Shown one piece after another: positions 9,880 through 56,286 of a DNA stretch of 64,000 nucleotides. The notes under the pieces were generated by a model, which saw nothing but the letters and a program-made list of their open reading frames with translations, did no database searches and was not told where the DNA came from. Made by a program: the position numbers and the translations under genes. Position 1 is the first letter of the stretch. Every line of letters begins with the position of its first letter. This DNA is from Candidatus Omnitrophota bacterium (GTDB lineage: Bacteria; Omnitrophota; Gorgyraeia; Gygaellales; Profunditerraquicolaceae), in assembly GCA_963805065.1 (NCBI GenBank), contig CAWDSS010000010.1, positions 19,696-83,695 of the forward strand. Reading direction: 5' to 3'.

Positions 9880-9902
9880 ACGTCAGAATGACTTGCTAGC
9901 TT

Positions 9903-13805: not shown

Positions 13806-13808
13806 TAT

Positions 13809-14018: not shown

Positions 14019-14030
14019 TTCTTCTCCTTT

Positions 14031-14070: not shown

Positions 14071-14083
14071 ATTCGTTTTTTGG

Positions 14084-16270: not shown

Positions 16271-17614
16271 TTATTCTTGCGCCTGTTCTGACAAAATTTC
16301 TAAGCCGGATGCTACGCCAATGCCTTTGGCTACTTCCGGAATTATCCCCTTCTTAACGTATATCGGCCTTATTTTTTCCCTGACCAAAGGTAATTTCCTG
16401 AAAAATAAATACGCTCCTATAATACAGCATATCCCCCCAAAAAACAAGGTATTAGGAGCCCCTATTTTGCTGGCCAACCCGCCGGCAATCAGGCTGCCGA
16501 AAGGAGCCACGCCCATAAAAGCAGTAGCATACAAACTCATTATACGACCGCGCTTATCTTCTTCAACAATGGTCTGTAAAATTGTATTACTGGCTGCCAT
16601 CTGGACCATCATAGAAAAACCAGCTATAGCAACCACCGGCAATGAGAACCAAAGGACCTTTGAATGGGAAAATATTATCAGCCCTAAACCAAACATAGCT
16701 GCTGCAATGGCAATTACCCTTGCCAAACCAACAACGGTTTTCCTTCCGGCTAGATAAATTGCTCCACCCAGAGCTCCGATTCCTGCCATAGCCATAAGGA
16801 ACCCTAAGGTCTTTGGCCCACCATGAAAAATATCCCTGGCAAAAACAGGCATCAAAACCTGATAAGGAACGCCTGTCAGGCTGATTAAACCCAGAAGCAG
16901 AAGAATGTATTTAATAGGGGCAAAATTAAACGCGTAAACAAACCCGTCTTTTAATTCTCGCAATAAATGCTGGCGCGTATCTTTTCTGGGGACCCTGCTG
17001 ATTTTCATTATCAGTAACGATATGATAACCGCAACGTAACTGACCGCGTTAAATAAGAAACAGACTCCTTCGCCAAATGCCGCGATAATAATTCCGCCTA
17101 TGGATGGGCCTATGAGTCTCGCCATATTTACCATCGAGGAATTCAAAGCAATGGCATTACCCAGGTCTTCTTTTTTATCTATCATTTCGATTGTGAATGC
17201 CTGGCGCACGGGTATGTCAAAAGAATTCACTACTCCCAAAAAAATGCTTAATGCAATAATCTGCCATACTTGTATGTAATTGGTAAATACAAGTATGGAT
17301 AACAATAACGCCTGCAACATTGCCAATGTCTGAGTAATAATCAATATGCGGTGGCGGTTATGCCTGTCGGCAATTACTCCCGCTACTGGCGTCAGCATAA
17401 AAGACGGAAGCTGCCCGAAAAATCCCACGATGCCTAGTAAGAATGCGGAATTTGTCATGCGGTACACCAACCAGCTCATGGCAATCTGCTGCATCCAGGT
17501 ACCGGATAAAGATATGCTCTGGCCGATAAAAAACAGGCGATAATTCCTATTTTTAAGGGCACGGAAAATATGTTCTAGATTATTTAAATCAAAACGTACA
17601 GTTTTGTGTCTCAT
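16271..17614 (-). CDS. MFS transporter (EntS/MFS_3-like), intact
   Basis: About 12 hydrophobic helices. N-terminal RNRNYRLFFIGQSISLSGTWMQ is typical of the family. Confidence 0.85.
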   Translation of the reverse strand: MRHKTVRFDLNNLEHIFRALKNRNYRLFFIGQSISLSGTWMQQIAMSWLVYRMTNSAFLLGIVGFFGQLPSFMLTPVAGVIADRHNRHRILIITQTLAMLQALLLSILVFTNYIQVWQIIALSIFLGVVNSFDIPVRQAFTIEMIDKKEDLGNAIALNSSMVNMARLIGPSIGGIIIAAFGEGVCFLFNAVSYVAVIISLLIMKISRVPRKDTRQHLLRELKDGFVYAFNFAPIKYILLLLGLISLTGVPYQVLMPVFARDIFHGGPKTLGFLMAMAGIGALGGAIYLAGRKTVVGLARVIAIAAAMFGLGLIIFSHSKVLWFSLPVVAIAGFSMMVQMAASNTILQTIVEEDKRGRIMSLYATAFMGVAPFGSLIAGGLASKIGAPNTLFFGGICCIIGAYLFFRKLPLVREKIRPIYVKKGIIPEVAKGIGVASGLEILSEQAQE

Positions 17615-17625: not shown

Positions 17626-19166
17626 TTAATGAGCTATGGGACCCATTGTCTGATGTTTTGGCCGTTTTAACAAGAAAACAAAGGGAATAACGCAAAGCAT
17701 GATAATTGTTGCTGCATAAAAGGCATCCATGAAAGCATGATAATTTGACTGCTTTAACAGGTTCTGATAAATCAAACCGTCTACGCTAAGATTATTGACA
17801 ACTCCTGTCCTTTGACTCAATATGCTCATTAAATGATGCTTGGCAAACTGATAGCGAGCATCGGAAGGAGTAAGCTGCTCCACAAAACGGAATTGATGGA
17901 ACTGCGCCCTCCTGGCAAGAAGGGTTGTCATAAACGCAATACCGAAACTTCCGGCAATATTTCTTAAAAGATTAAAAATACTTGTGGCATTGCCCATTTC
18001 CTCTTTTTTTATGGTGGCAAAGGCCATGCTGGCAAGCGGCACAAAAACCAGGCCCAAACCCAGCCCCATAATAAATCTTGACCATAACACCGTTTGGAAA
18101 TCTACGTAAAGGTTAAATGTCGCCATCATAAATACTGAATAAGCGGTTATAAGAAGACCGATGGTAAGTAATATCTTTGGGTTAAATTTAGTAACAAATC
18201 TTCCGGCAATAGGCATGGCAATTAGAGAGGCAATACCTCCCGGGGCAAGAGCAATTCCCGCGAAGAAAAGCAGTGTAACCCATTAGCTCCTGCAGGAATA
18301 AAGGCAAAAGCACAATGCTGCCAAAAAGCACAAAGAATGATAAAAACTGGATTACGTTAGCGCTGGCAAAGGAACTATCCTTGAATTCCCTTAAGTTTAA
18401 AACCGGCTCGCGTGCCCTCAGTTCAACTATAATAAACAGAACCAGGGATATGGCAGAGATTATTGCCAGCCGCGTGATAAAAACCGAAGAAAACCAATCC
18501 TCCCGCTGCCCTTTATCGAGAACTACCTGAAGACATCCTATGCCTACGGCAATCAGTCCAAGTCCCCAGTAATCCATCTTTTCCCTTACTCTTTTTAAGA
18601 TACGGACGGGTCCTGTATAAAAAGCATAATCATTATTATAGAAATAATCCCCATCGGGATATTAATATAAAAAATCCAGTTCCAGGACCAGTTATCAGTA
18701 ATCCAGCCGCCTAAAACCGGCCCTACAATCGGGCCGACCATAACCCCTACTCCAAAAAGCGCCATTGCCATTCCATATTCAGCAGCAGGAAAGGCCTCAA
18801 ATAATATCGCCTGAGAAAGAGGCTGCAGCGCTCCGCCTCCTATACCCTGTATTACCCTGAAAGATTATAAGCGCATTCATGCGTGTGTGCGCTTCCGCAC
18901 ATAAACGAACTGAGAGTAAATAATGCCACAGAAAATATTAAATAGCGTTTTCTGCCAAAAATACTGCTTAGCCAGGCAGTAAGCGGTATGATTATGGCAT
19001 TAGATACAAGATAGGCTGTGATTGTCCAGGTCACCTCATCTATCCCCGCAGACAGACTCCCTCGGATATGATCCAGCGAAACATTGACCACGGAAGTATC
19101 GATAACTTCCAGCAGCGTGGGGAGTACTACCGATAAGGCAATAATCCATTTACTTACCTTATTCAT
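17626..19166 (-). pseudogene. EmrB/QacA-type DHA2 MFS efflux pump, multiply frameshifted
   Basis: Track fragments 18852-19166, 18188-18577 and 17626-18216, plus an unlisted frame at 18577-18852 (FRVIQGIGGGALQPLSQAILFEAF...), join into one EmrB-like protein only after about 4 frame changes. The changes include a (CA)n tract near 18880 and a T-run near 18862. Confidence 0.75.
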
Positions 19167-20181
19167 CTTGGGTGATAATGGTAGGAACGCATGACATGCC
19201 TATGCGTAATACCCTGCGGCTATCAGTCGATTTATCAAATACTATTTTCACAGGAATTCTCTGGACTACTTTGACGTAATTACCGAGGGCATTCTCAGGA
19301 GGAAATAGCGAGAATACTGCACCCGTCCCTGCCATAATGCTATCCACCTTACCGGTAAAAATCTTTCCGGGATAAGTGTCGACTTTTATATTTACAGGCT
19401 GTCCTGGCCGTACGTGCCTTAACTGTGTCTCTTTGTAATTAGCAATCACCCATATGTCATCAAGCGCAACCACCGCCATTAATGGCTGGCCCGCCTGAAT
19501 CTGATTTCCTACTTCTACATTTTTTTGCGTCACATACCCATCGGTAGGAGCAGATATTTTGGTATAGCCTAGGTTTAGCTGGCTAGTTTTTAGGGCTGCT
19601 TCTCTCTGTTTTATCAAAGACTCTTCCAGATTTTTAAAGGACTTGGCTTTTTCCAGTTGCTCTCCTGCTGCCTTTGCCTGTGCTGCAGCCACATCATAAG
19701 CAGTAAGTATTTTTTCCTGCCTTTCTTTGGGGATAACGCTATCCTTAAACAGTGCCTCTCCTCTATTTTTGTCAAGCGCAGCCTGATTAAGCGATGCCTG
19801 CTGCATTTCTAAATTAGCCTCCGCTGTTTTTATGCCTGCCTCGGCGTCAAGGAGCCTGGCTTTCTCAGCATCAAGGGCTGCCTGCGCCTCGTTCACCTTA
19901 ACTTCATAATCAACAGGGTCAATCTCTACCAACAGGTCACCTTGTTTAACCGCCTGATTATCTTCGATATACACCTGCTTAACCGTGCCGTATATTTTAG
20001 CGGCGATACTGTGAATCCTGCCTTCGATATAGGCATCGTCGGTGGTGATGCGGTTACGGTTATAGGTTATGTAAGCAAACGCCGAAGCTGCGATTACAAC
20101 CACGGTAATCACTAACAGAAAAATTAATTTTTTATTTTTATTGTTTTGCGGATTCATCTTGTTTTTCCTCCATCCTTTCAT
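19159..20181 (-). CDS. HlyD/EmrA-type membrane fusion protein
   Basis: N-terminal TM, coiled-coil region, barrel-sandwich motifs (GDLLVEIDP, APTDGYV). Confidence 0.85.
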   Translation of the reverse strand: MKGWRKNKMNPQNNKNKKLIFLLVITVVVIAASAFAYITYNRNRITTDDAYIEGRIHSIAAKIYGTVKQVYIEDNQAVKQGDLLVEIDPVDYEVKVNEAQAALDAEKARLLDAEAGIKTAEANLEMQQASLNQAALDKNRGEALFKDSVIPKERQEKILTAYDVAAAQAKAAGEQLEKAKSFKNLEESLIKQREAALKTSQLNLGYTKISAPTDGYVTQKNVEVGNQIQAGQPLMAVVALDDIWVIANYKETQLRHVRPGQPVNIKVDTYPGKIFTGKVDSIMAGTGAVFSLFPPENALGNYVKVVQRIPVKIVFDKSTDSRRVLRIGMSCVPTIITQDE

Positions 20182-21526
20182 AAATTAAAGACAGGTCTAC
20201 GCCCATGGAATACATTAGTTTCGCATAACTACGTTTTAATTCGTAATCGTCATTAAAATAATTGGTGTGGGCAATGGTTTCCAGGGTTATTGCCTCAAGC
20301 ACCTCTGTTGAAGTAGCGCTGCCGGCATTATATTTTACGCGGTAAAACCGCACGTTTTCCTCTGCCTGGGAAACTGCGTCTTTACCTACTGTTAATTTTT
20401 CAGAAGCGTTCTTTAACCCTAATAAACTATCCTCTATCTCAAGTTTAATATCCTCTATTATTTTTTCTTTTTGCTCATTGAGTTGTTTTTGCCTTGCGCG
20501 TTCTTTGAGTAAGTCGGCTTTCGCCCTCCCGCCGTCATAAAAATTCATCTTTGCCCCTAGTTGAAATGAAACGTTATCTTCATGAACCTGGTAGTCATTC
20601 TCAGAATAAGCGTATCCTGCGTCGGCAAAAAATATGGGAAAATTTTCCACGGCTTTGGCTCTTTCGCTTAAGCTAGAAGCTTGTATCTGGTCTTCAAAGA
20701 AAACTATTTCAGGCCTTTGCCTGCCGGCAATATTCCAGGCATTCTCCAGTTCCGGAGGCTCTACAGGCTGCATACCTATATCTTGCGCCTCAACACTTTC
20801 TCTTAACGGAAAAGAAAGAATATTGTTAAGCTGGGCAACTGCGACTTCCTTTGCGTTACGCGCGGCAATAAGCTTTTGCCTTGCATCAGCCAGCCGCACC
20901 TGGGCAGGCAATAAATCGTTCTTAACCGCAGACCCCTGCTCATAAAGATGCTCCGCATCGTTTAGATAGGCATTTAAACTCTCTACCTCTTTTTCAAACA
21001 CCACAATCATTTTCTCTGCTTCCAAAAGATTAAAATAAGCAACGATGAATTCAAGGGTAGCTACTCTTTTTATGCTTTCGGTGTTTGCCTGGCGTGCTTT
21101 AAATAATTCTTTTGAGGCACGGTAGTTAAAAATATTTTTCCCGAAATCAAATAATGTCTGATAAACGTCCAGACTGAAAGAAAAGAAATCCTTATTGGAG
21201 GTGTTTACGTTTAAAGCATCAAACTTTGCGGCCGGCTTAAATTGATAGAATGTTTGCCAGCCGAGAGCGTTACCTTGCGGCAAAAGAACGGAACGCGCCA
21301 CCAGAGAATCCTGATACGCTTGTTCGTTATCCAGTAATGCTATTTTTAACAGCCGATTGTCCTTAAGGACTATTTTAATCCCCTCGGAAATAGTAATCAG
21401 CCTGTATTGTGCTTTTTGTTTGGCCAAAGTTTCTTCGCCAAAAGCAGGAAAAACCAAACCCTTGATTATAAAAATATTGAGAATTACGATTACTATTAAA
21501 TTCTTTCGCATTCTTGTTTCCTGCAC
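20138..21526 (-). CDS. TolC-family outer membrane efflux protein
   Basis: Signal peptide and a two-repeat alpha/beta TolC-like sequence. Confidence 0.8.
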   Translation of the reverse strand: MQETRMRKNLIVIVILNIFIIKGLVFPAFGEETLAKQKAQYRLITISEGIKIVLKDNRLLKIALLDNEQAYQDSLVARSVLLPQGNALGWQTFYQFKPAAKFDALNVNTSNKDFFSFSLDVYQTLFDFGKNIFNYRASKELFKARQANTESIKRVATLEFIVAYFNLLEAEKMIVVFEKEVESLNAYLNDAEHLYEQGSAVKNDLLPAQVRLADARQKLIAARNAKEVAVAQLNNILSFPLRESVEAQDIGMQPVEPPELENAWNIAGRQRPEIVFFEDQIQASSLSERAKAVENFPIFFADAGYAYSENDYQVHEDNVSFQLGAKMNFYDGGRAKADLLKERARQKQLNEQKEKIIEDIKLEIEDSLLGLKNASEKLTVGKDAVSQAEENVRFYRVKYNAGSATSTEVLEAITLETIAHTNYFNDDYELKRSYAKLMYSMGVDLSLIYERMEEKQDESAKQ

Positions 21527-21529
21527 TTT

Positions 21530-24500
21530 TTAAATCTTTAAATTTTTTGGTTTATCTTTTTGGTCTAGCGAACCTGGATTTTCTTCGGCTTTTTCAGGGG
21601 CATCATGGGATTTGTGCTCCAGCTTTGAGAATACTTCATATGCGCAAGGGACAACAAACAGTGTCAAGATAGTAGAGAGTGAAACTCCGCCGATAACAGC
21701 CACAGCCATGGGAACCATAACCTCCGAACCAGGTCCGATAGCCAGTGCCTCAGGAGTCGCAGCCGCAATCATGGCGATAGAAGTCATCAGAATCGGCCTT
21801 AGGCGTATAGGGCAGGCATCCAAAAGCGCCTCCTTTACTCCCATTCCCTGCTTGCGCCGTACATTAGTAAAATCAACGAGAAGAATAGAGTTTTTCTTTA
21901 CAATGCCCATAAGAAGAATAAGGCCAATCATACTATAAAGATTAAGCGTATTGTGAGTTAAGAACAAGAATAAAAAGGCCCCTGTGACACTAAATGGCAA
22001 TGCCAAAAGTACGGTAAAGGGATGGATAAAACTGTTGAACTGCGTTCCCAGAATCATATAAGCGACAAAAATTCCCAAAATAAGGGCAAAAATCAGGCTC
22101 TGGAAAGACTCTTTAAAGGCCTGTGAACCGCCGGAAAAAACTAGGTGGTAATCGTTCGGGAAGAACTTCTTTGCCGATTTTTAAAACAGCATCCAAGGCT
22201 TCTTGCTGAGAATGGCCCGGAGGCGGGGTTTGCATAAATACTGACAGCGCGCTCACGGTTTTTACGGGTAATTGAAAATAAAGAAGGATTTTCGTTTGCA
22301 GTCACAACTGCTGATAGCGGCACCACCTCTCCAAATTCATTACGCACCCACATTCTTTGAACGTCTTTTGTATTTGAGCGGTCAGCTTCAGCCAATCGCA
22401 CACGGATATCATAGCGTTTGCCGCGGCTGGTAAATTTGCCATTACGGACTCCTCCAACCATAGCATTGATAGTATCTGCTATGGAAAGGACACTTACGCC
22501 ATGCTCTGCTGCCTTCTGCCGGTCCGGATAAACTTGTAACTCCGGCATGCCGAGTTGATAGTCGGTATCAACATCTACCATTATACCCGAAGCCTTCATC
22601 CGCTTCATAATCTCCTGGCTAAATTGGCCCAATTTTTCCCAATCAGGCCCCCGGACCGTAAATTCAATTGGGAATCCGCGCTGCGCGGTAAAACCGGTAA
22701 GAGAAAGATCCTGAATCGAAGCGCGATCTACTCCCGGGTATGCTATTGAATTGCTTACGCACTATCTGCATAAACTCAGCTTGAGTCTCGTGATGGCCGT
22801 TTAACAGAGGCCTCTCTTTTGGAGGTTTCATCGTAATAAAAATAAATCCCTGATTAACCTGTCCTCCGGTAAAACTGCCTACCGCGCTGTAATAAGTCAA
22901 TACTTCCGGACGCTGCATGAGAAATTTCTCTGCTTCCTTAAAGAGATCGTCGGTTTTTTCGATGGAACTTCCCAGAGGCAATGTTATACGCGCAAGAAAC
23001 CTGCTTTGATCTTGCGGGGGAATGAATTCTTTTTTCAAAAGCCTCGATAGTGCCTAAAGACGAAACAAAAACCAAAATTGCAATAATTAAAATTGTCTTG
23101 GGCCGATCCAATATAAACTTAAGCGTAGAGCGATAACTTTCTGATAGCCATTTCATGATCTTATCAATGAATTTTCCCAGTCTTGTCGTATGCCCCACAG
23201 CCAAAAATTGCGAGCATCTCATCGGCGTAATAGTCAACGCCTCAAGCAAAGAAAACATTACCGCTACTGATATCGTGACTCCGAACTGGAAGAAGAATTT
23301 TCCGACGATCCCCTGCATAAAGATAACCGGTATAAAAATCGCTAAAATTGCTACGGATGCCGCAATAGCGGCAAAGGTAATCTCCCGCGCTCCGACTAAA
23401 GCCGCTTCTTTGCGCGCAAGCCCATGTTCCTGATAACGCGAAATATTCTCCAGAACCATGATGGCATCATCCACAACAATTCCTATAACCAAGGAAAGCC
23501 CGAGCATGGTAAAGGTATTAATAGTAAACCCTGCGAAATAAAGAATGAAAAATGCGCCCATGATAGAAAAAGGTATGGATAACAGAACATTGATATTAGC
23601 GCTCCAGGAGCCTAAAAATAAATAACAGACAAGCGAAGTCAGGATAACCGAAAGCAACAGGTTGAATTTTAACTCATTGACCGAATCCTTAATAAACTGG
23701 GTAGTATCAAAGACTACATCAAGATGCATGCCGGCAGGCAAAGTTTTTTGAAGCTCCTGCATTCTTTTCTTTACGCCATCGGCCACGTCCACGGCATTTG
23801 TGCCGCGCTGTTTAATTATCCCTAAGCCAACTGCGGGCTTTCCCCAGCTACGCGAAATCCTGCGGATATCTGCCAAGCCGTCTTCAACGCTGCCGACATC
23901 TCCGATACGCAGGCTCTTCCAAATCGGGCCGCCGCGCACACGCGTCGGTATAGTTATATTTTCAAATTGCTCCGGGGTTGTAGCCTCACCATAAACCCTG
24001 ACATTAATTTCTTTAGGGCCTGTGTCGATATACCCGGAAGGAATATCGGCGTGCTGAAAGTTTATCGCATTAAGCACGTCTTCAACCGTAAGCTCCATTT
24101 GCTGCATCTTTTCAGCATCAAGCCAAACCCTAAGATTCGGATCAACATATCCACCCAGCCTGATATCGCCAACCCCCGGAACAGTGGTAAACTGATCTTT
24201 TAAAGTTTCATTGGTATAACGGCACAAATCTTTGATGGACTTGTCTCCGGAAAGCGCAATAAACATTATCGGCTGGTCTTCAGGGTTAGTCTTGGTTACA
24301 ACAGGCGGGTCGATATCGCGCGGCAAGTTTCTTTGCGCCTGCGCAATCTTACTCTGCACCTCCTGAAGAGCTACGTCTATATTGCGGTTAAGATTAAATT
24401 CCAGCGTAATTTGCGCAATCCCTTGCATTGATACGGAAGTAACTTCTTTTAACCCCTCTACGCTCATCACAGCGTCTTCAATAATATCCGTTACATCGGT

Positions 24501-24680
24501 TTCCATAACTTCCGGGGCAGCACCCTCCCAGGTTACCGAGACCGAAACAACCGGAAAGTCCACATCGGGCAGCTGGCTTACCCCTAAACGCTGGAAACCT
24601 ATCCAACCAAAAACAAGGACGCCAATCATGAGCATCCAGCCAAAAACGGGATTTTTAATCGATATGTCAGATAGTGTCAT
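21530..24680 (-). pseudogene. RND (AcrB/HAE1-type) efflux permease, multiply frameshifted
   Basis: Fragments 22938-24680, 22664-23038, 22141-22632 and 21530-22078 are collinear pieces of one pump of about 1050 aa. Frame changes traced near 23035, 22735, 22215 and 22150. Confidence 0.8.
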
Positions 24681-25957
24681 TTTATTATTGTATCCGGGTT
24701 AATCTCTCCTGCAGCAGCTAATAACTGCCAGTAAAAACGTTTGCTTTCGTAAGAAGTATGGATGTAGCTTCTTCGGACGTCTTCCAAATTCTGTATCGCA
24801 GTCAAGACATCCAGGTTATTCACCACATTTAGTTTGTAATCCTGAGTTTGCAAATGATAACTTAATTCGGCAGATTCCAAAGCTTTTCCCAATGTCTTCT
24901 TTCTTGAAATAGATATCTGCATATTTACATAAGCATCATGGATATCCTGAATTGCAATTCTTCCTAACCTGCTATACAGCAGTCCGCTCTGTTTTGCCAC
25001 AGCATCAGCTTCTTTAACCTGGCCATAAGTCGTAGTCCCTTCAAAAATAGGGACATTCACTGAAAGCAGGGCATCCCATTTGCTATCCGCAGGCGCAGTG
25101 GAGCGATGGGTAAAATAGTCTCCCTCTAAATTTATCTGAGGAAGGAAACCGCTTCTGGCAATTGCTATCTTTTCCTGATCCGACCTCCAGGCATAATAAG
25201 AAGCTTGTACATCCGGACGAAAAGATGCTTCTGCTAAATATTGAGATTCTGGTTTTATATTAAGATCGAAATTTGATTCTGCTATTTTGTCAAACGGCCT
25301 GCCGATTAAAAATTCAAGAAGCTGGCGCACTAAGAGCTCCTGATTTCTATCCAACTGAATCTGGGCTTCGAGATTATAAAGCTGGTATTCTGTAGTCACG
25401 ACCTCACTGGTCCTGGATTTACCGATACTCTGCCGTGACTTTAATTCTTTAACGCGGTCTTGAAGCGCAAATTCAATTGTCTTAAGTGCGTTAAGGTCTT
25501 GCTGTGTTTCCAAAAGCAGATAAAACGCATCGGAGACATCCACAAAAAGAAGCTGTTCAGCACGCCATTTCTCCTTTTGGCGCTGACTCTTTTCAAATTT
25601 ACTGCTCTTCATTGCGGCAAATTCTTTAAAACCGGAAAACAGATCCTGTGTGAAGGTAAATTTTGCTTCGTGCATATTGTTAAAAGAGGCGTCGCTGGAA
25701 TGATTTCTCATCTCTGCGTGGGAAAAGGATACTTGCGGCATTATTGTTCCGAACGCCTCAAGGAAATGCGCTTCGGCTATTTTGATTTGCTCGGCATCTA
25801 TGGCAATAAGTTCGCTTTGCTTTAGTGCAAGTTTATAGCAGTCTATGAGCGTAAACGCCTTTTCTTCGGCCTTTGGCTTTTCCTGGGCATAGGAAGGCAA
25901 ATAAACCAATGTAAACATAAATACGAATAATACTATTAATCTATCTCTTTTTCTCAT
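24677..25957 (-). CDS. TolC-family outer membrane efflux protein
   Basis: Signal peptide and TolC-like repeats. Its stop overlaps the RND start as ATGA. Confidence 0.8.
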   Translation of the reverse strand: MRKRDRLIVLFVFMFTLVYLPSYAQEKPKAEEKAFTLIDCYKLALKQSELIAIDAEQIKIAEAHFLEAFGTIMPQVSFSHAEMRNHSSDASFNNMHEAKFTFTQDLFSGFKEFAAMKSSKFEKSQRQKEKWRAEQLLFVDVSDAFYLLLETQQDLNALKTIEFALQDRVKELKSRQSIGKSRTSEVVTTEYQLYNLEAQIQLDRNQELLVRQLLEFLIGRPFDKIAESNFDLNIKPESQYLAEASFRPDVQASYYAWRSDQEKIAIARSGFLPQINLEGDYFTHRSTAPADSKWDALLSVNVPIFEGTTTYGQVKEADAVAKQSGLLYSRLGRIAIQDIHDAYVNMQISISRKKTLGKALESAELSYHLQTQDYKLNVVNNLDVLTAIQNLEDVRRSYIHTSYESKRFYWQLLAAAGEINPDTIIK

Positions 25958-25965
25958 TCTTCACA

Positions 25966-26039
25966 GGGACACCCTTAAATTCAATCGGGAGGATGTCCCT
26001 ATTTGGGGACACCTTTTGCTTTGGAATCAAGGGTGTCCC
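25966..26039. repeat. two tandem family A hairpins (GGGACACC...GGGTGTCCC)
   Basis: 25966-25999 and 26006-26039. They share GAAT(T)CAAGGGTGTCCC with the 3400-3433 hairpin, one of them in inverted orientation. Confidence 0.55.
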
Positions 26040-26488
26040 TATTTATTGGAGGAAATTATCTCGTTTATTCGCAATAAGATACGTAAATAATCCTTGCGTT
26101 CTTTTTCAGAAAGCATGCTAAACATATCAATAATTGAACGCCTGCGTTCTTCATTAACCTTTTTTGCGATTTCCTGGCCGCGGCTGGTAAGTTTCATACG
26201 TATAAGCCGCCTGTCCCTTGAATCGTAAAAACGCTGGCAATAGCCAGCCTCAACAAGCCTGTCTATCGTACCGGTCATTGCCGCGGTTGACACGTCCATA
26301 AACTTGGCTAAACCCGTCATGGTAGACTCTCCTTGCCTATTAAGATGATCCAAAATAAAAAACTGCGGGAAGGTAATATTTGCCATAGACAATAACCTCA
26401 TTTTGTTACGGCCAAATTCGCGCATGAGAGTAGGCATTATTGCATTAATCTGGTCGGCAAATTTAGCTAAAGAGTTTTTGCCTGCCAT
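26039..26488 (-). CDS. MarR-family transcriptional regulator
   Basis: Winged-helix region FFILDHLNRQGESTMTGLAKFMDVSTAAMTGTIDRLVEAGY...DRRLIRMKLT. Confidence 0.85.
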   Translation of the reverse strand: MAGKNSLAKFADQINAIMPTLMREFGRNKMRLLSMANITFPQFFILDHLNRQGESTMTGLAKFMDVSTAAMTGTIDRLVEAGYCQRFYDSRDRRLIRMKLTSRGQEIAKKVNEERRRSIIDMFSMLSEKERKDYLRILLRINEIISSNK

Positions 26489-26503
26489 TATCCCTCCTGA
26501 AAA

Positions 26504-26565
26504 TTGTTAAGATTATTAATAATCAACATGCTTAACAATATATACTAAAAAAAGCCTTTTGTCAA
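26504..26565 (-). promoter_or_regulatory. sigma70-like promoter overlapped by an inverted repeat (putative MarR operator)
   Basis: On the minus strand: TTGACA (26565-26560), 17 nt, TATATT (26542-26537). The inverted repeat TTGTTAAG (26504-26511) / CTTAACAA (26531-26538) overlaps the -10 box. Confidence 0.5.
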
Positions 26566-26613
26566 GGGAATTTCCGTCGAAAAACACGGGTTAATAAAAT
26601 AATGGTAAGGGGA

Positions 26614-27300
26614 TTATTTAGGGATAAATTGCATCAAATCGTATATACCCAGGGTCTTTTCAAGTTCTTTAACCCGCTCTACTTCTTTTTCAAAACCGTT
26701 CTTCCCGAATAATTCCTGTTCCTTGTCCTCGAATTTATCACCCAGCATCGCTAGTTCACTTGGCGTAATAACTTTCTCTAGCGCCGGGAATAAAACAGTG
26801 TCTTCGCGCGCTGCATGAGGACGGTAAAGACGGATGAACTTACTAAGGCAACTAGCAAGCTCGATACGATTTTTTTGCTCTTTAAGGGAAGTGGCGTTAG
26901 AAAGATTAATTATCTTCTGAGTTAATATCCTGCCTGCGACGTGTTGTTTACGCAATACTCTCGTAAGATCTCCCAATTCACCGGTTTTTTCAAAACGTGG
27001 AAAAATGTAATCTTCTTCGAGCTTCTCGTGGTACTGCTCAATAAAAGTTTGTATGATTCGCGCTGCACTGGCAAGAGCATCCGCAGGAATTTCTTTACCC
27101 TTGTAATACCGCCGAAGAACTTCTTCATAGATGAGAATAACTCTTCTTAGCACTCCGTGCTCGCGCATCAGGTCCTCGGCAGGTGATATCGCCTCGCCAA
27201 CATTGCGTAACTCCTGCTTCGCTTCTTTTGCGTTTATCGCAGGCACAATCAACAAACTAAAAAATAAACATATTGCCAGTTTTTTTAAAGACGGCATCAA
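26614..27300 (-). CDS. hemerythrin-like domain protein with signal peptide
   Basis: EDLMREHGVLRRVILIYEE and HAAREDTVLFP resemble HHE cation-binding motifs. N-terminal signal LAICLFFSLLIVPAINA. Confidence 0.65.
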   Translation of the reverse strand: MMPSLKKLAICLFFSLLIVPAINAKEAKQELRNVGEAISPAEDLMREHGVLRRVILIYEEVLRRYYKGKEIPADALASAARIIQTFIEQYHEKLEEDYIFPRFEKTGELGDLTRVLRKQHVAGRILTQKIINLSNATSLKEQKNRIELASCLSKFIRLYRPHAAREDTVLFPALEKVITPSELAMLGDKFEDKEQELFGKNGFEKEVERVKELEKTLGIYDLMQFIPK

Positions 27301-27328
27301 CCTGCCTCCGCCTGATTGCTATGGATAT

Positions 27329-27499
27329 TTATCTTGTTAACTGTAACTCCCGTTTTATCTGCTTCTCTGCTTCGAACCAATCAGCCCATTCATTGCCGGG
27401 AGCACATCCTCTTCTCTTGCAAAGTTCCTGCGCCCTCCATTTTATCAGGTCTCTGATTTTATCTTCAGAGAGTTCCTTAGTACGCATACCTTTAGTCAT
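27329..27499 (-). CDS. DUF2934-like small protein (56 aa), below the track threshold
   Basis: Hand translation: MTKGMRTKELSEDKIRDLIKWRAQELCKRRGCAPGNEWADWFEAEKQIKRELQLTR. Shine-Dalgarno GGAGGTG lies 6 nt upstream. Confidence 0.5.
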   Translation of the reverse strand: MTKGMRTKELSEDKIRDLIKWRAQELCKRRGCAPGNEWADWFEAEKQIKRELQLTR

Positions 27500-27515
27500 G
27501 TTGGCACCTCCTTAC

Positions 27516-27659
27516 TTATTTCTTATGCTTTTTTGACTTGCCGACCATGGGGCGGCCGCAACACCAGATTACTTCATCCGACATGCCGCAGGCATTAACT
27601 AAAACCTCCCTGCCGCAAGGAACACACACCAATTTCTGACCTTTTTTAGGCTTTGCCAT
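27516..27659 (-). CDS. desulforedoxin-like small protein (47 aa), below the track threshold
   Basis: Hand translation: MAKPKKGQKLVCVPCGREVLVNACGMSDEVIWCCGRPMVGKSKKHKK. It carries CxxC-x17-CC-G-x-x-M. Shine-Dalgarno GGAGG lies upstream. Confidence 0.5.
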   Translation of the reverse strand: MAKPKKGQKLVCVPCGREVLVNACGMSDEVIWCCGRPMVGKSKKHKK

Positions 27660-44191: not shown

Positions 44192-45323
44192 TTAGGCCAT
44201 TCTCCTCTTGAATCTCAAAATGCTAAGGCTTATTACGGTCATGCCCATGATTAAAAGTATCAACAGCTGATCCCAAAGTATATCAATCCCTACTCCCTTC
44301 AAAAATATACCTCTGATAATCACCAGAAAATAGCGCATAGGATTAATTAATGTAAACCACTGGATGATTTGCGGCATATTGGCTATTGGGTAGGCAAATC
44401 CGGACAACAAAAATGTCGGCATGTAAAAAAGAAACACCGACATCATAGCTTCCTGCTGTGTGGAAGCAATAGTAGAAATAAACAGCCCCGCGCCTAACGA
44501 AGTAAATAAATAAACGCATGTGGCTAACGCCAAAAAAAGCAAACTTCCTCTTAACGGTATATGAAACCAGAATACCGCAAGGCTGGTGATGAGGCTGGAT
44601 TGAATTAGGGCAATGATGCCAAAAGGAATAAGTTTACCGATAATAAGTTCAAGCGGCATTAGGGGGCTAACAATCAACTGCTCCATGGTGCCAATCTCCT
44701 TCTCCCTTACAATAGCCATAGCAGTCAATAATAGAGACATAATGGTAACGATAGAAGCAATAACTCCCGGCAGATAATAATTCCTGGAAATAAGATTTTC
44801 ATTAAACCAGGCGCGGTCTCTTAAGTCTACTGACTGCGCCTGCACCTATCAAGCCCTTTGCGTCAATATCCTGCTTAATCAGGCGGTATTGGTAATTGCT
44901 CATAATCGTATTGGCATAGCCAAGTATGACCATGGCGGTATTTGAATCTGAACCGTCAAGAGACAAGCTGCACATTCGCGCTTTTGCCGGCTAAAACATC
45001 CCGGCCAAAACCGCGGTCAATGCGTATAACTGCACTGGTTTTTCCCCTATCGATGAGCCGATCCTGCTCTTCCTTGCTATAGATATAATATTTGGGGATG
45101 AAATATTTGGAGTAAGTAAAATCGCGCAAAAGCTCGCGGCTTTCCTTGGTATTATCCTGGTCGTAAATTGCCGCGGGATATAATCAATGTCTTTGTTGGC
45201 GGCATAGCCAAAGAGAAGTATCTGGATAAGCGGAGAAATAAAAATAACCGTCTTCATGCGCGGGTCGCGTAAGACCTGTTTGAATTCTTTGATCAGTATT
45301 GCCCTAACCCTTTCAAACATCAT
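44192..45323 (-). pseudogene. ABC-2 permease (YbhR-like), frameshifted
   Basis: The N-terminus MMFERVRAILIKEFKQVLRDPRMK (from 45323) and the C-terminal fragment 44192-44845 are collinear only after at least 2 frame changes between about 45180 and 44850. Confidence 0.65.
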
Positions 45324-46457
45324 CAGAGCCACCTTTTTCTTGAATTTTCTTACCGCAAGATTAAACATGAGAAACGCGAATAAAAATAAAAACAGCGATT
45401 CATACCACAATACACGCATGCCGCTTCCCTTTAAAAATAATCCTCTTAAGATAAATATGAAATAACGCGCCGGGACAAAATAAGTGATTGACCTGATAAT
45501 CGGCGGCATATTAAAAATCGGATATATAAAACCGGAAAGGAGCATTGTGGGTATGAATGTGGTAAGTGTTGCCAGCTGGCTGGCTAGTAATTGCGTCCTG
45601 GCAGTGATAGAGATGAATATTCCCTGCGATAGCGCGCCGATTAAAAACAGCGCGCTTAATACAACCAGCAAAAGATAATTTCCCCTAAAAGGCACCCCGA
45701 ATAAAAATCTAATCATAATTACGCCTACGCTAAGGTCAAAAAAACCTATTGTAAAATAGGGCAGAAGCTTACCTACGATAAGCTCTAATGGCTTTACAGG
45801 AGTAGAAATCAACTGCTCCATAGTGCCTCTCTCCCATTCCCTGGCAACGCAAATGGAAGTAAGCAGCGCTGCGATAATCATTATGATCATTGCGATGACC
45901 CCCGGAGTGATAAACCACCTGCTGGTCAACCCCATATTAAACCAAATCCTGGAGCGCAGGTCTACGGACCTCTCTGGCTTAATGCCATACTTGGCAAATG
46001 TCTTTACCAATAAATTTAAATTGTATGTGGCAACCACCGAACGCACATACCCCATGGCAATGGTTGCGGTATTAGAGTCGCTTCCATCCACCAATAACTG
46101 CAATGGTGCAGCTTTCGCGGATTGAAGATAGTGGGAAAAATCCTTGGGGATTATCAATGCCATCATCGCCTGGCCGTTATTGATCATGCGTTCGATATCG
46201 CGGTAATTATCCGTGTAGGAGATGATTCTAAAATATTTGGAATTTTTAAAATTGAGCAGGAAATCGCGGGTAAGCTGCGAAGAGGTGTCCTGGTTCCAAA
46301 CTACTGTACGGACCCTATCGATATCCAAAGAAAGGCCGTAACCAAAAATTATCAATAAAAATACCGGGATCACCAAAGCCAAAGCCAGCGAACGCGGATC
46401 GCGCTTAATCTGGATAAATTCCTTATTGGATATTGCCCACGTCCTTTTCAGGTTCAT
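45324..46457 (-). CDS. ABC-2 permease (YbhS-like); no stop separates it from the next permease
   Basis: Track ORF 44991-46457. Residues 1 to about 378 form a complete ABC-2 permease. The frame then reads straight into the MMFERV... start of the second permease. Confidence 0.7.
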
Positions 46458-47404
46458 TTGTCCTTATGCTCTGCGTCGTAATTCTCAACCAGGGAAACAA
46501 ATACGTCTTCCAAAGAAGGCAAAATCTTATTTATGGAATAATTAGTTACGTTCTCCTTTGCAAAAATATTTTTCAATGCCGCGGTAGCTACCTTAGCTTC
46601 ATAGACCACAACGTGTAAATTTACGCCAAATAACGCGGCATCCTTTACCGATTTCAATTTTGAGATTTTATCCAGCCACAGCTCGGCGTGCGGCATAATA
46701 ATTTCCAGAATTTCATGCTTCATAATGGTAGTCTTCATCTCCTGTGGACTACCCATGGCAATCATCGTGCCGTGGTAAATCATCACCAAGCGGTTACAAT
46801 TCTCTGCCTCATCCATATAATGAGTAGTTACAAAAATAGTCTTGCCTTGTTCAGCCATTTCCTTGATAATCTTCCAGAAATTACTGCGAGTTATCGGGTC
46901 AACCCCCGAGGTCGGCTCATCCAGGAAAATAATATTTGGTTGATGAATAATAGCGCATCCGATAGCCAAGCTCTGCTTCCATCCACCGGAAAGCGTGCCT
47001 GTGAGGTTTTTTCGGAAATCATCAATGCCGGCTAACTTTATGGTTTCGTTTTTCCTCTGTTCTCTTTCAGCTTTAGGAATCGTATAAATACTGCTGTAGA
47101 AATCGATATTCTCTTCCACGGTAAGGTCATCATAAAGAGAAAACTTCTGGGACATATAGCCGATATTTTGCTTGATGTTATGCTGCTCTTTCATGATATC
47201 AAACCCGCCTACTGTGCCGCTGCCCGAAGTCGGCGAATAAATACCGCAAAGCATCCTTATGGTAGTGGATTTTCCTGCGCCGTTTGGCCCCAGGAATCCA
47301 AAGATCTCACCTTGTTTTACCTCGAAATTGATATGATTAACCGCGGTAAAACTGCCGAATGTTTTTTCCAGGTTATCTACTTTTACGGCGATATTATTAT
47401 CCAT
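46454..47404 (-). CDS. ABC transporter ATP-binding protein (intact)
   Basis: Walker A GPNGAGKST, signature LSGGWKQ, Walker B IIFLDEPT. Confidence 0.9.
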   Translation of the reverse strand: MDNNIAVKVDNLEKTFGSFTAVNHINFEVKQGEIFGFLGPNGAGKSTTIRMLCGIYSPTSGSGTVGGFDIMKEQHNIKQNIGYMSQKFSLYDDLTVEENIDFYSSIYTIPKAEREQRKNETIKLAGIDDFRKNLTGTLSGGWKQSLAIGCAIIHQPNIIFLDEPTSGVDPITRSNFWKIIKEMAEQGKTIFVTTHYMDEAENCNRLVMIYHGTMIAMGSPQEMKTTIMKHEILEIIMPHAELWLDKISKLKSVKDAALFGVNLHVVVYEAKVATAALKNIFAKENVTNYSINKILPSLEDVFVSLVENYDAEHKDK

Positions 47405-48141
47405 TAAGCATTGCGCGATTCGTAATCGTTAACAATCTTGATAAATGCCTGCTCCAGAGTTTTTACATTCCACTCGTTTTTAATGTTATCCGGCGTGTCG
47501 CATTTAAGAGCCTGCCTTTATGGATCAATCCCACCCTGCGGCAGCGCTCTGCTTCATCCAGGTAAGACGTAGAATAAAGTATAGTGACTTTTTCTTTTAA
47601 AAGATCATAAAGTATTTTCCAGAAATCGCGGCGGGATACCGGATCAACTCCGTTTGTCGGCTCATCAAGAAATAAAACCTTGGGAGTGTGGATCAATGCG
47701 CAGGAAAGCCCTAATTTTTGCTTCATACCTCCGGATAATTTTCCCGCTAACCTTTGTTTAAAAGGCAGGAGCCCGGAAAAACCCAACAGCTTATCAATAA
47801 TTGCCTGCCTGTTTTCTTTTGGCACGCAGAAAACATCGGCGTAAAAATTGATATTCTCTAAAACCGTCAGCTCTTCATAAAGCCCGAAACGCTGCGACAT
47901 ATAGGCGATATTTTCCTTAAGGGGTTCGGATTCTTTGACGATATGTTTGCCATAAACCCAGCCCTCTCCTTCTGTAGGCTCAAGGATCCCGGTCAAGAAG
48001 CCGCATGGTCGTAGTCTTTCCAGCGCCATCCGGCCCCACAAGCCCGAATATCTCGCCTTCTTCAATTTCAAGATTAAGTTTATTAACTGCAGTATTATCC
48101 TGAAATTTCCTAGTCAGGCCGACTGCTTTTATAGTTATCAT
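47404..48141 (-). pseudogene. ABC transporter ATP-binding protein, frameshifted
   Basis: ATG at 48141 gives [13 protein letters not shown]...[14 protein letters not shown], then a shift near 48000 into ORF 47463-48071 (LSGGMKQK, LFLDEPT). A second shift at an A-run near 47500 precedes the true stop at 47404-47406. Confidence 0.75.
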
Positions 48142-48150
48142 TTAATGAAA

Positions 48151-48989
48151 TTATATTTGTATATACGCGTCTGCAGGCATGCCGGGTTTAAGGTCAAGGC
48201 TGGAATTATCCACCTTTACCTTTATTCTATAAACAAGCTTAACCCTCTCTTCTGTAGTCTGGATGGTTTTAGGAGTAAATTCTGCTTCGCTTGATATAAA
48301 AGAAACTCTTCCTTTATATTTCTTTCCGGGGTAGGTATCAGTAACTACGTCTGCTTCCTGATTTAGCTTTACCCTGCCTAAATCAGTTTCATTGATATAT
48401 GCGGTCACCCAGATATTATTTAAATCAATCACGGTAAATACAGGAGCGCCAACTTGCACCACTTCTCCAGGTAGAGCGCTTTTTACCAGGACATATCCGT
48501 TAAGCGGTGAAACCAGATTGGCAAACCCCAGCCTGGTTTTAGCTAACTCTAAAGACGCTGAGAGTGCATCTACATTTGCCTTATCCGCTATCTGCCTGCG
48601 TTTTGGCCGCATCTCTTTTTTGCATGGAGATAGCTCCTGCCTGGAAAAGATTTTCTGCACGTTCGTAATCCAAGTTTATCCAGCTCGTATTGTGACTCTG
48701 CGGCTTTAAGCGCAGCCTCGGCATTATCGCGAATCTTGGTTAATTCATCGGTGTTTAAATTTGCTACCGGGTCACCGATCTTTAATACCTTGCCTTCATC
48801 AGTAAAAAGCTCGAGGATTTGCCCTTGCACCCGGAAAGATATCCGCACGTCATCTCCCTCGATGTTACCTGAAACTTTAATACCCTTATGGTTATGATTA
48901 CGGTTTTGCCAAAATATGCCTGCTGCTACACCCACGCCAAAAATAAGCAAAACAATAATAATTGCTGCCGGTTTAATTTTTAGTTTCAT
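48151..48989 (-). pseudogene. HlyD/YbhG-type membrane fusion protein, frameshifted
   Basis: Track ORFs 48588-48989 and 48151-48660 are collinear halves. I traced two frame changes, near 48680 and 48600. Confidence 0.75.
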
Positions 48990-54865: not shown

Positions 54866-55096
54866 TAGCGGGTGACGAGGCGCGTTCCGAGCGGCACATA
54901 AGGAAGCCGAAGCGGGCATGGTTTGCCTCGTTAGAAAAGTATCCAAGAGCGAAGGCTTCCGCTTGAGCGAAGATTTTCCACGCTGGGGAAAATCGAGCGA
55001 TGACGCGAGGAACGTGCCTCGGCAGGACCCGCTACCTAGCAAAACGAGCGTTCTCGCGAAAAACACCCCAAGACAGGACCCACTACTGCTATTGTG
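54866..55096 (+). other. GC-rich structured island (candidate ncRNA or element remnant) with a 51-bp tandem duplication
   Basis: Long-range helices 54866-54872/55028-55034 and 54876-54888/55009-55021, the latter with one G-U pair valid only on the + strand. Inner hairpins at 54902-54960 and 54972-54994. Units 54995-55045 and 55046-55096 are about 70% identical. Confidence 0.3.
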
Positions 55097-56286
55097 GACT
55101 TTGAGTACCAGGGCGGGAAAAATGGTTGATAGCGCCAATAAAGATTGGTAAAGCGACAATCTGTAAGACTACTGAAAAGATAATTAGGACAGTTATTGAT
55201 TTGACATAGAGAATTCCCATAATAGCGCTACCTAAAAACCAGGCAATCCCGAAATCCGGTATCAAATACGCCGAATGCCGTGCTTCTTTTATCTTGAGAA
55301 ATCATATTAGCTAGCGTTGCTTTAAGAAGAGATTCTTGCGCGCCCAGGCCGATACCCCAGAGAATCATACCGATAATAATCAAAAGGAATTTACCCCAGA
55401 AGACAAACGGAGCAAAAAATGCTCCCAGGAAAAAGCGCAAAAAGCATTACCTTAGAGCCTGTCCTATCCAATAACCGGCCAAAAATATAGAGAACTAATC
55501 CCCCCTACTGCCATAGCTAGCGCATAAAGAATCGGAATCCAATGCATGGGAACATTATTTGTTTTATCAAAATGAAATGCGATTAAAGCAAAATCCGCGA
55601 ATCCCGCCGCAATCAAAGCACCGCCCAATAGATACAGCCAATAAGCATTTGAAAAACCCCTAGCTTCTAAAACTCTGGCTTCTTTTTTATCCAAATCCTG
55701 CGGCTTGGGGAAAAATAATCTGGCAGCTATAAGCATAGCTAAACACAATAATGCAGATATCAAAAGTATAGCCGTATCCGTATTTATAGCTATTTTTTAC
55801 AAATAACACCCAGGCTACAATCAAAGGCCCGATCGTCGCGCCGAATTGATCCAGAAATTCATTAAGCCCGAATACCCAGCCGGAGCCCATTTCTTTACCG
55901 GCAAAGGAAAGCATGGTTTCTACAGCGGGCTTTCCTATAGCTCTTCCTGTCCGCTCGGCAATTATCAACACGCAAGCCACCGGCCAATTGCCTGCTAATG
56001 CCAAGGCAGGCACGGCAAGCATATTAATTGCATAACCCACAAAGGCAAAAATCCAGTATTTATGGGTTTTGTCTGCGAAAAAACCCGCTACGGAACGTAA
56101 TGCATAACCGATTAATTCACCAAAACCAGCTATAAATCCTACTGTAACTGCGCTGGCTCCTAAACTGGATAAAAATGCTCCATTAATACTTCTTCCTCCT
56201 TCATAGGTAAAATCCGCAAATAAATTTACAATACCTATGATCAGCACAAATCCAAATGCAAGCTGAGTGGTGTTTTTTTTATTCAT
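55089..56286 (-). pseudogene. MFS transporter, multiply frameshifted
   Basis: Fragments 55687-56286, 55464-55763 and 55228-55440, plus an unlisted C-terminal frame ending at TAG 55089-55091, are collinear pieces of one 12-TM MFS protein. Confidence 0.7.

Follow-up and report, generated by a model that had tools for sequence, protein, structure and literature searches.

The window, the whole stretch of 64,000 nucleotides that was analysed, carries a cluster of efflux genes, an ABC-type efflux cluster and a further MFS transporter gene (Table 1). The identities within the first cluster were backed by Pfam matches or by the names of homologues (MarR, OEP, ACR_tran, OEP, HlyD, DHA2 MFS and MFS_3), in keeping with what had been proposed from the letters and ORF translations. 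The stop of the first TolC-like gene overlaps the start of the RND gene by 4 nt, and the same OEP-RND overlap is found in the orthologous loci L082 and L083. This arrangement resembles an AcrB-type RND system in that an OEP gene and an RND pump gene stand under a MarR-family regulator, but it differs from that system in having no adjacent adaptor gene, as had been noted before: none lies beside the OEP-RND pair, in the same operon, in the window or in the orthologous cassettes of L082 and L083. The gene downstream of the pair in L082 and L083, which is absent from the window, resembles a cytosolic nucleotidyltransferase. The second TolC-like gene, the HlyD-type adaptor and the DHA2 MFS permease gene have the gene content and order of EmrAB-TolC. 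The third system is like ABC-type tripartite efflux, with its OEP, adaptor, two ABC ATPases and two ABC-2 permeases.

Table 1. Transporter-associated features of the window, with the frame changes located in them.
Feature	Coordinates (strand)	State and matches	Frame changes	ORF fragments or remarks
MFS_3-type transporter	16271..17614 (-)	intact; MFS_3 and MFS_1 over full length		recorded as a single 447-aa protein
EmrB-like DHA2 MFS permease	17626..19166 (-)	broken	five +1: ~18881 (CA tract), 18858-62 (T run), 18603-06, 18591, 18262-65	18852-19166, 18595-18771, 18188-18577, 17626-18216
EmrA-like (HlyD-family) periplasmic adaptor	19159..20181 (-)	intact; HlyD_D23, HlyD_3, Biotin_lipoyl_2		public-record start 20157
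TolC-like outer-membrane factor 2	20138..21526 (-)	intact; OEP		public-record start 21511
RND (HAE1/AcrB-type) permease	21530..24680 (-)	broken	four +1: ~23051-55, 22732-39, 22218-20, 22157-60	22938-24680, 22664-23038, 22141-22632, 22113-22256, 21530-22078
TolC-like outer-membrane factor 1	24677..25957 (-)	intact; OEP
MarR-family regulator	26039..26488 (-)	intact; MarR		same protein in Logan L081
Heterogeneous block	21632..25793			most of TolC-like 1 plus RND; 123 SNPs vs Logan
ABC-type efflux cluster	44192..48989 (-)		eight; +1: ~48674, 48589, 47997, 45327 (removes permease 1 stop), 44967, 44837; -1: ~47509, 45172	HlyD-like adaptor, ATPase 1, ATPase 2, permease 1, permease 2
HlyD-like adaptor of the ABC cluster	48151..48989		two
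ABC ATPase	47407..48141		two
Permease pair	44192..46457		four (one abolishes the permease 1 stop)
MFS transporter	55089..56286 (-)	broken	four +1: 55773, 55486, 55429, 55255

The source is a 1.19-Mb metagenome contig of Candidatus Omnitrophota, whose size, from which the platform was judged, suggests a long-read assembly. In the public record, the fragments of the broken genes are separate proteins of one 1,191,048-bp contig, so the shifts belong to the deposited assembly itself. As a comparison set, we used six contigs of this organism from Logan, an independent assembly (run ERR10755942), which together represent 26,617 nt of the window. They cover 14 of the 21 frame changes described below, namely 13 insertions and the deletion at 47509; the insertions at 48674, 48589, 47997, 45327, 44967 and 44837 and the deletion at 45172 lie outside them. 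The positions of the frame changes were obtained by frameshift-aware alignment of protein to DNA and by DNA alignment against intact orthologues. The relatives found in a scan of contigs were all distant, with amino-acid identities of at most 70-79%; they served to locate the shifts and were too divergent to name the inserted base. Searches with the full-length corrected RND, EmrB and HlyD-like proteins returned many intact homologues and no near-identical full copy of this strain, so the sites of the ABC cluster at 48674, 48589, 47997 and 45327-44837 are without confirmation from an independent assembly. Contigs with close relatives of Amt were syntenic only as far as Amt and P-II, giving no reference for the MFS gene at 55089-56286, of which no homologue was present in any retrieved locus; a contig look-up with the SBF gene gave no match.

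DNA alignment of the RND gene against its intact orthologues in L082 and L083 placed four insertions of 1 nt each in the window. Intact homologues, of approximately 1025-1035 aa and with identity up to 94%, numbered more than 100. The corrected protein shared 93-94% identity with uninterrupted proteins of 1007-1034 aa that carry PF00873, and as a full-length ACR_tran protein of ~1030 aa it belongs to the HAE1 (AcrB) type. In Logan (L100), all four bases are lacking and the RND gene is one uninterrupted ORF of 1040 aa, cut by the start of the contig.

Removal of the five extra bases from the EmrB-like gene gave a protein of 511 aa, as is typical for its homologues; it was 76% identical to 511-aa proteins named as DHA2 family. 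The same Logan contig lacks all five bases, and its ORF runs uninterrupted for at least 437 aa until the contig end cuts it; this ORF matches MFS_1 over positions 6-346 of 347. The full-length fold of ~511 aa, with EmrA-like and OEP genes directly upstream, identifies the product as a DHA2 MFS drug exporter of the EmrB type. Those two neighbours are undisturbed: the EmrA-like adaptor, if started at M9, is an identical 332-aa protein in Logan, the second TolC-like factor is an identical 457-aa protein, and neither gene contains SNPs relative to Logan (L100 for the TolC-like gene).

The eight frame changes of the ABC cluster were located by alignment to a syntenic JGI locus (L084), and the corrected HlyD-like adaptor has 278 aa, the same as its homologues. 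Logan contig L095 possesses the G that is missing from the window at 47509 and differs from it by 18 SNPs; ATPase 2 has 8 SNPs and no indel. For the MFS gene at 55089-56286, with homologues of approximately 390-405 aa, Logan (L101) encodes an intact 397-aa MFS_1 protein without the four extra bases, and its 35 SNPs are confined to the gene.

Across the window we found 21 frame changes, all of them in six transporter genes. In the remaining ~50 kb, none was detected by ORF, Pfam and coding-frame checks; the suspicious ORF pairs there proved to be separate complete genes, and segmentation by coding frame agreed with the ORF boundaries. The original prediction thus described the fragmentation well. 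According to the ORF list and the alignments, the EmrB-like and RND genes are broken exactly where it had placed the damage and their neighbours are intact, its four RND sites match the four insertions found by alignment, and no shift was found in the rest of the window, as it had stated. Its counts were low: it located the EmrB-like damage correctly, including the CA tract and the T run, and estimated about four changes where there are five, and it rightly confined the shifts to transporter genes while tracing roughly 17 where 21 were counted here.

None of the 14 covered frame changes is present in Logan, where the 13 insertions are absent and the base missing at 47509 is present; that the reads lack the extra bases is judged from a single independent k-mer assembly, made from a single run. 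Of the five fragments of broken genes present in the protein collection, none is sourced from Logan, which is a source of many intact neighbours. Outside the affected genes, Logan and the window differ by 2 SNPs in ~19 kb. In a non-efflux control of ~13 kb, there were 0 differences in 8274 nt (L103) and 1 in 4856 nt (L102), with no indel. The frame changes sit only in blocks of 0.7-4.2 kb that carry 1-3% SNPs relative to Logan. Four such blocks, amounting to 7.6 kb of the 26.6 kb compared (28%), hold 187 of the 189 SNPs and 14 of the 14 indels, and the probability that all 14 indels would fall in them under random placement over the compared sequence is p = 2e-8.

The edges of the largest block are sharp. 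Between the first TolC-like gene and L081 there are 27 SNPs and no indel, with all 27 SNPs in 24657-25793 and none in 25794-27619, and the 95-96 SNPs of the RND gene against L100 all lie in 24600-21632, with none in 21600-19101. The DNA is 75-95% identical to that of L082 and L083 from ~25800 to 21600 and drops to background level outside. The heterogeneous block therefore coincides with a block of homology that is common to the OEP-RND cassettes of other Omnitrophota. Of the 96 RND SNP sites, 69 have a window allele that agrees with other Omnitrophota and 14 a Logan allele that does so; at a further 9 both alleles agree. Synonymous SNPs account for approximately two-thirds of the total (synonymous vs non-synonymous: RND 64 vs 31, MFS 24 vs 11, TolC-like 1 18 vs 8). 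Judged by this synonymous excess, by the matches to other Omnitrophota and by the shared homology block, the SNPs in the blocks are biological alleles. The alleles of the RND gene are randomly interspersed (97 runs, with 97.7 expected in a runs test). The test gives no ground for reading the RND gene as a tract-wise recombinant, and it does not tell a genuine haplotype with 3% divergence apart from a consensus mixed site by site.

The frame changes have a distinctive form. Insertions of one base (+1) make up 19 of the 21 (p = 1e-4, tested against equal numbers of insertions and deletions), and of the 13 that were compared with Logan, 10-11 add a base that differs from those beside it. Instead, the inserted base and its neighbour can often be read as the two alleles of one synonymous site written in tandem, as in CC[C][G]AAC, AAAAA[G][A]GTA, TTT[C][A]GGG and, three times, CT[T][G]. 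This reading holds for 10 of the 13 Logan-compared insertions (p = 0.003) and for 15 of all 19 (p = 1e-4), relative to a chance expectation of 35% of random insertions, and it fails for four insertions and both deletions. Several of the alternative alleles are bases present in relatives. No shared motif or slippery sequence was seen among the shift sites. Homopolymer or methylation-motif errors were ruled out, given the lack of a common motif and the correct length of the long homopolymers (A6, T6) within the affected genes; confusion between paralogues within the window was ruled out as well, the paralogues being only ~45% identical.

Taken together, these results indicate, with a probability of about 0.9, that the frameshifts arose as errors in the assembly consensus, at places where versions of a gene with slight differences were merged, and that the organism is not losing its pumps. 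Reads at a few transporter genes would have come from two or more versions 1-3% apart, the second version belonging to co-existing strains or to related Omnitrophota with the same conserved efflux cassettes. The assembler would have merged these versions into one sequence, and at ~20 polymorphic sites the consensus step would have emitted both alleles in tandem instead of one, each doubled allele adding one base and breaking the reading frame. The exact consensus step behind the errors is one that we infer from the sequence. The errors covered by Logan are confined to segments with more than one version, and most of the insertions lie on what look like polymorphic sites and can be explained by the alleles there. 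Against this explanation stand the lack of any indel in the first TolC-like gene and ATPase 2 despite their 27 and 8 SNPs, and the four insertions and two deletions that do not read as synonymous tandem alleles. Collapse of strain heterogeneity into a poor consensus at exactly these loci had been offered originally as the alternative to gene loss, and it is this alternative that the data favour, with shifts only in SNP blocks and most of them apparently tandem alleles. The argument that random error should not concentrate in this way was correct, but genuine loss does not follow from it: the errors are non-random because they follow local sequence heterogeneity. With the true genes intact, the MarR/OEP/RND, OEP/EmrA/EmrB, ABC and MFS systems are to be taken as functional.

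Genuine recent pseudogenization, in which a real strain with ~20 frame-breaking indels in six transporter genes would be losing efflux, was the favoured reading of the original prediction. Gene loss would be plausible in the small-genome, host-dependent forms known among Omnitrophota; the shifts are in the deposited assembly and only in transporter genes, and the window alleles differ from the Logan haplotype in those same genes, indicating that a second haplotype exists. We nevertheless consider this explanation very unlikely. Relaxed selection cannot yield 1-3% SNPs within genes against 2 SNPs in the ~19 kb around them, nor does it account for SNPs that are two-thirds synonymous and for window alleles that mostly match other species. 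The corrected frames contain no in-frame stop, and despite four or five indels per gene they show no surplus of non-synonymous change at the first and second codon positions; the window-specific RND substitutions number 7/3/47 at the first, second and third codon positions in the shifted region itself and 4/2/34 beyond it. Natural indels tend to be deletions and to fall in homopolymer runs, and the changes here are nearly all insertions, mostly outside homopolymers and mostly at synonymous tandem alleles. Moreover, a single hit suffices to disable a gene, and repeated hits in each of six genes, with decay showing in no other way, would call for some unknown mutator specific to insertions. The inference of continuing efflux loss is thus not supported: the Logan alleles (14 of 14 covered shifts absent), the lack of nonsense codons, the third-position bias and the insertion spectrum speak against it, and neither the relaxed selection nor the natural indel spectrum of pseudogenes by decay was found. 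Within the blocks, Logan represents a different haplotype, 1-3% away, which shows intact alleles and is not strict proof against a co-existing frameshifted one. If the frameshifted alleles did physically exist as a second haplotype, the +1 insertions would be biological and six transporter genes would be inactivated at once; faulty heteroduplex repair after recombination between divergent efflux cassettes might then have kept both alleles in tandem. We regard this as highly improbable. Much likelier, as a tentative reading at somewhat less than even odds, is a clonal Omnitrophota population in which polymorphism or exchange is limited to the efflux cassettes.

Ordinary random long-read error, arising from low coverage or incomplete polishing and unrelated to heterogeneity, has in its favour that a 1.19-Mb metagenome contig would imply long reads and that long-read assemblies are known to keep frameshifting indels (PMC9262707; bioRxiv 10.1101/2021.08.23.457338). 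Such error would not place all 14 testable indels in the SNP-bearing 28% of the compared sequence, leave ~19 kb of SNP-free sequence and the other ~50 kb of the window without any, spare the A6 and T6 runs in the affected genes, or favour positions of synonymous alleles, and we rate it a shade below pseudogenization, itself very unlikely. Programmed +1 ribosomal frameshifting or transcriptional slippage at the shift sites could be suspected from the nearly uniform direction of the shifts (+1) and the full conservation of the corrected frames. Such recoding is so improbable as to be negligible: the sites have no common motif or slippery sequence, four or five events per gene would be unprecedented, and hundreds of homologues are encoded in a single frame, as are the near-identical Logan alleles, whose intactness effectively refutes it.

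Consensus error at merged gene versions has precedents in part. Flye is reported to merge strains at 98.65% identity into a single consensus (PMC8302730), and nanopore MAG pipelines need consensus polishing to lower the number of indels (PMC12313526, PMC9262707). As in a collapsed-strain ('strain-oblivious') consensus, near-identical genomes appear to have been merged here, with blocks 97-99% and flanks 100% identical. Unlike that case, the heterogeneity is found in a few transporter genes and is not genome-wide, and the errors appear to consist of both SNP alleles in tandem, giving +1 frameshifts, a form that is read from the letters themselves. No description of this tandem-allele form was found in the long-read assembly literature examined. 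The long-read frameshifts addressed by IDEEL and proovframe are likewise single-base indels that yield adjacent ORF fragments, with homologues giving the true length (PMC9262707; bioRxiv 10.1101/2021.08.23.457338). Classic long-read indels are scattered errors of homopolymer length and mostly deletions, whereas those described here are mostly insertions away from homopolymers and are grouped in polymorphic blocks. Pseudogenes that arise by neutral decay in bacteria, such as host-restricted ones, share with these genes the occurrence of several disruptions per gene beside intact neighbours, but differ from them in three respects: the genes of the window have no nonsense codons and no relaxed codon-position pattern, they show an insertion bias rather than a deletion bias, and they have intact alleles in an otherwise identical genome background.

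For this Omnitrophota genome, the biological consequence is minor: its efflux systems call for annotation as intact genes rather than pseudogenes, and they give no basis for claiming that efflux has been lost or the genome reduced. More generally, +1 frameshifts in long-read MAGs that cluster in conserved or exchangeable genes can mimic targeted gene decay. They inflate pseudogene counts and could bias metabolic or resistance inference toward the loss of the very genes in which co-occurring strains differ. The tandem-allele signature, an inserted base that yields a synonymous variant when swapped with its neighbour, offers an inexpensive diagnostic for which reads are not required. The locus also makes a modest biological point, namely that population variation is concentrated in transporter cassettes, of which the OEP-RND cassette is common, at 85-95% DNA identity, to other Omnitrophota.

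Breaks in the transporter genes were mapped by frameshift-aware protein-to-DNA alignment against Omnitrophota homologues and, for the RND gene, additionally by aligning its DNA to two intact orthologues (87.5% identical). We found 21 frame changes (19 +1 insertions and two -1 deletions) in six transporter genes of the window. The EmrB-like and RND break positions in the original prediction were accurate, and its further claims also held: the neighbouring genes were intact, and the concentration of frame changes in efflux genes was real and not due to chance, none being located elsewhere. In the public record each EmrB and RND fragment is a protein in its own right on a 1,191,048-bp contig, indicating that the shifts belong to the deposited assembly. 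A recorded ORF in the ABC cluster was ABC-2 permease 1 falsely fused to the start of permease 2, because GC[T][C]TGA contains one surplus base, which abolishes the permease 1 stop codon.

Outside the efflux genes, a search of ORF pairs, coding-frame segmentation and domain sets across the whole window yielded no frame changes. Overlapping or close ORF pairs were separate complete genes (two cold-shock genes, PilZ, GemA, PEBP, cupredoxin, DoxX, and an ECF sigma factor with its anti-sigma factor), hexamer-based coding-frame segmentation agreed with the ORF boundaries, and domain sets were complete in large genes, among them the histidine kinase and SecDF. The identities of the MarR-to-MFS_3 cluster genes were backed by Pfam and named homologues. 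The minus strand was almost wholly coding across the window, with a G+C content of 38-47%. All of the approximately 65 genes lie on this strand except an APA-family antiporter, and GC skew is negative throughout, consistent with one replichore with a strong gene-strand bias.

Frame changes, polymorphic blocks and other features (window positions unless stated)
Feature	Position (strand)	Content
EmrB-like gene	17626-19166 (-)	four ORFs; five single-base insertions near 18881, 18860, 18605, 18591, 18264
RND gene	21530-24680 (-)	five ORFs; four single-base insertions near 23053, 22735, 22219, 22158
ABC cluster	44192-48989 (-)
 HlyD-like adaptor		two insertions
 ATPase 1		one insertion, one deletion
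 permease pair		three insertions, one deletion; permease 1 stop codon lost through one insertion
 fused permease ORF	44991-46457 (-)	488 aa
MFS gene	55089-56286 (-)	four insertions
Efflux gene order	17626-26488	MarR, OEP (TolC-like 1), RND, OEP (TolC-like 2), HlyD-type adaptor (EmrA-like), DHA2 MFS (EmrB-like), MFS_3 transporter
Block	25793-21632	most of TolC-like 1 and RND gene; 123 SNPs
Block	19064-18364	within EmrB gene
Block	47796-46150	ATPase 1, ATPase 2, permease 1
Block	~56300-55250	MFS gene
Variable stretches	17851-27619, 46132-47856, 55004-56978	variation vs Logan in transporter genes only, at 1-3%
Control stretches	5991-14264, 39847-44702	1 SNP/13 kb
OEP-RND pair	21600-25800; L082 8724-13084; L083 5792-10152
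Third TolC-like ORF	48973-50508 (-)	511 aa; Cro/C1-type HTH_3 at residues 6-61
Cold-shock genes	13809-14018, 14084-14284 (-)	tandem
B12-binding radical-SAM gene	12519-13805
789-aa protein	9903-12272 (-)
303-aa protein	41619-42530 (-)
GemA-like (phage Mu) domain protein	8013-8426 (-)
APA-family antiporter	58937-60532

We compared the window with Logan contigs, an independent assembly of the same organism from run ERR10755942. Exact-protein look-ups placed many intact window proteins in Logan assemblies, and Logan was a source of none of the five broken-gene fragments present in the collection. Six contigs, all from this run, span 26,617 nt of the window and include 14 of the 21 frame-change sites. 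They differed from it by 189 SNPs and 14 one-base indels. Nine of these indels are the insertions in RND and EmrB, four are those in MFS and the last is the deletion at 47509; Logan carried the in-frame version at every one of the 14. One contig, L100 (17851-24656), encodes a single uninterrupted RND ORF of 1040 aa and an EmrB ORF unbroken over 437 aa up to the contig end, and another (L101) an intact MFS of 397 aa. SNPs and indels were limited to four blocks totalling 7.6 kb; the chance of all 14 indels landing there under random placement over the compared sequence was 2e-8. Between and around the blocks the sequences were identical, including 1.8 kb toward MarR and 2.5 kb over TolC-like 2 and EmrA (both on L100). 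Control contigs showed 0 differences in 8274 nt (L103) and 1 in 4856 nt (L102).

The original prediction had favoured ongoing loss of efflux capacity, which is contradicted by the in-frame Logan sequences, by the lack of any stop codon in the corrected frames and by the substitution pattern. With the two intact orthologues as outgroups, window-lineage RND substitutions at the three codon positions numbered 28/12/88 before the first shift, 7/3/47 within the shifted region and 4/2/34 after the last. The stretch that real shifts would leave untranslated still has a purifying-selection pattern; four to five indels per gene with no accompanying neutral substitutions do not resemble decay. The nearest genomes are Candidatus Omnitrophota MAGs, and dozens of intact RND homologues from many metagenomes (90-94% identity) are all approximately 1025-1035 aa. 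Without the extra bases, EmrB and the ABC adaptor would be 511 and 278 aa, exactly the homologue lengths. We give pump decay low weight as a biological finding. A physically real frameshifted haplotype would accord with the different allele that Logan contigs carry inside the blocks, and we consider it very improbable.

For the most part, the insertions leave homopolymer lengths unchanged (CCG TCC[G]TAT, AAAAA[G]AGTA, TTTC[A]GGG, CCC[G]AAC, GGG[A]GTA), and nearby A6 and T6 runs are correct. When the base adjoining the "inserted" one was deleted instead, the resulting codon differed only synonymously from that of Logan at 10 of 13 Logan-compared insertions (CCC/CCG, AAA/AAG, CGG/AGG, TCC/TCG, ACG/ACC, TTT/TTC and GGG/GGA among them); the corresponding rate for random insertions in the same genes is 35% (p = 0.003). 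The same signature was present at five of the six insertions beyond Logan coverage (CTT/CTG three times, GCA/GCG, GCT/GCC), giving 15/19 overall (p = 1e-4). Most simply, the consensus would have written both alleles of one SNP in succession, leaving an extra base. Strains of this similarity are known to be collapsed by long-read metagenome assemblers (PMC8302730), and indel removal in long-read MAG pipelines relies on consensus polishing (PMC12313526, PMC9262707). Heterogeneity collapsed into a poor consensus, which the original prediction had named as its alternative, is therefore strongly supported as the explanation of the frameshifts by these sequence comparisons: the indels are confined to SNP blocks, Logan is in frame, and tandem alleles recur.

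Approximately two-thirds of the SNPs were synonymous. At 96 RND SNP sites, other Omnitrophota shared the window allele at 69 and the Logan allele at 14, with both matched at a further nine, and the RND/TolC-like 1 block is the same stretch that has 75-95% DNA identity to other Omnitrophota OEP-RND cassettes. The block SNPs are thus biological alleles and not noise, so that the window sequence in these genes would be a second real allele or else a mixture drawn to related alleles; a runs test found no tract structure in the RND alleles, a result compatible with both readings. Variation against Logan is confined to the transporter genes, and the genome background is otherwise identical. This variation could reflect gene-specific allelic exchange among strains, or reads of related species recruited at conserved genes. 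Its concentration in transporter cassettes on an otherwise clonal background is real and mildly interesting; other Omnitrophota share at least the OEP-RND cassette.

In relatives RND is arranged as it is here (MarR or OEP-RND), and the OEP and RND genes overlap by 4 nt. No periplasmic adaptor gene adjoins the pair in the window or in two intact loci of other Omnitrophota (L082, L083), so its absence characterizes the family and does not point to decay; the EmrA-like or ABC-cluster adaptor might be shared for RND-OEP coupling. The pair is 85-95% identical in DNA to those of other Omnitrophota, its flanking genes in L082 and L083 are unrelated to those of the window, and it behaves, on this comparison, as a portable cassette.

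In a third TolC-like ORF, an N-terminal HTH_3 domain is joined in frame to an apparent truncated signal peptide, followed by OEP repeats; this protein was not found in Logan. Fusion of a DNA-binding domain to an outer-membrane protein is implausible, and a small regulator gene may have been joined to TolC by another consensus indel, although in a syntenic JGI locus (L084) the open frame of the homologue likewise includes a weak wHTH-like stretch. The first of two tandem cold-shock genes stops one codon before a radical-SAM gene in the same frame, an arrangement that is real, since L103 is identical there. The 789-aa and 303-aa proteins had no Pfam match at E <= 1e-5 and are exactly conserved in the Logan assembly. 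A GemA-like gene adjoins a PEBP-family gene, with an AbiEii/nucleotidyltransferase-like gene near, and this region may be a mobile-element remnant.
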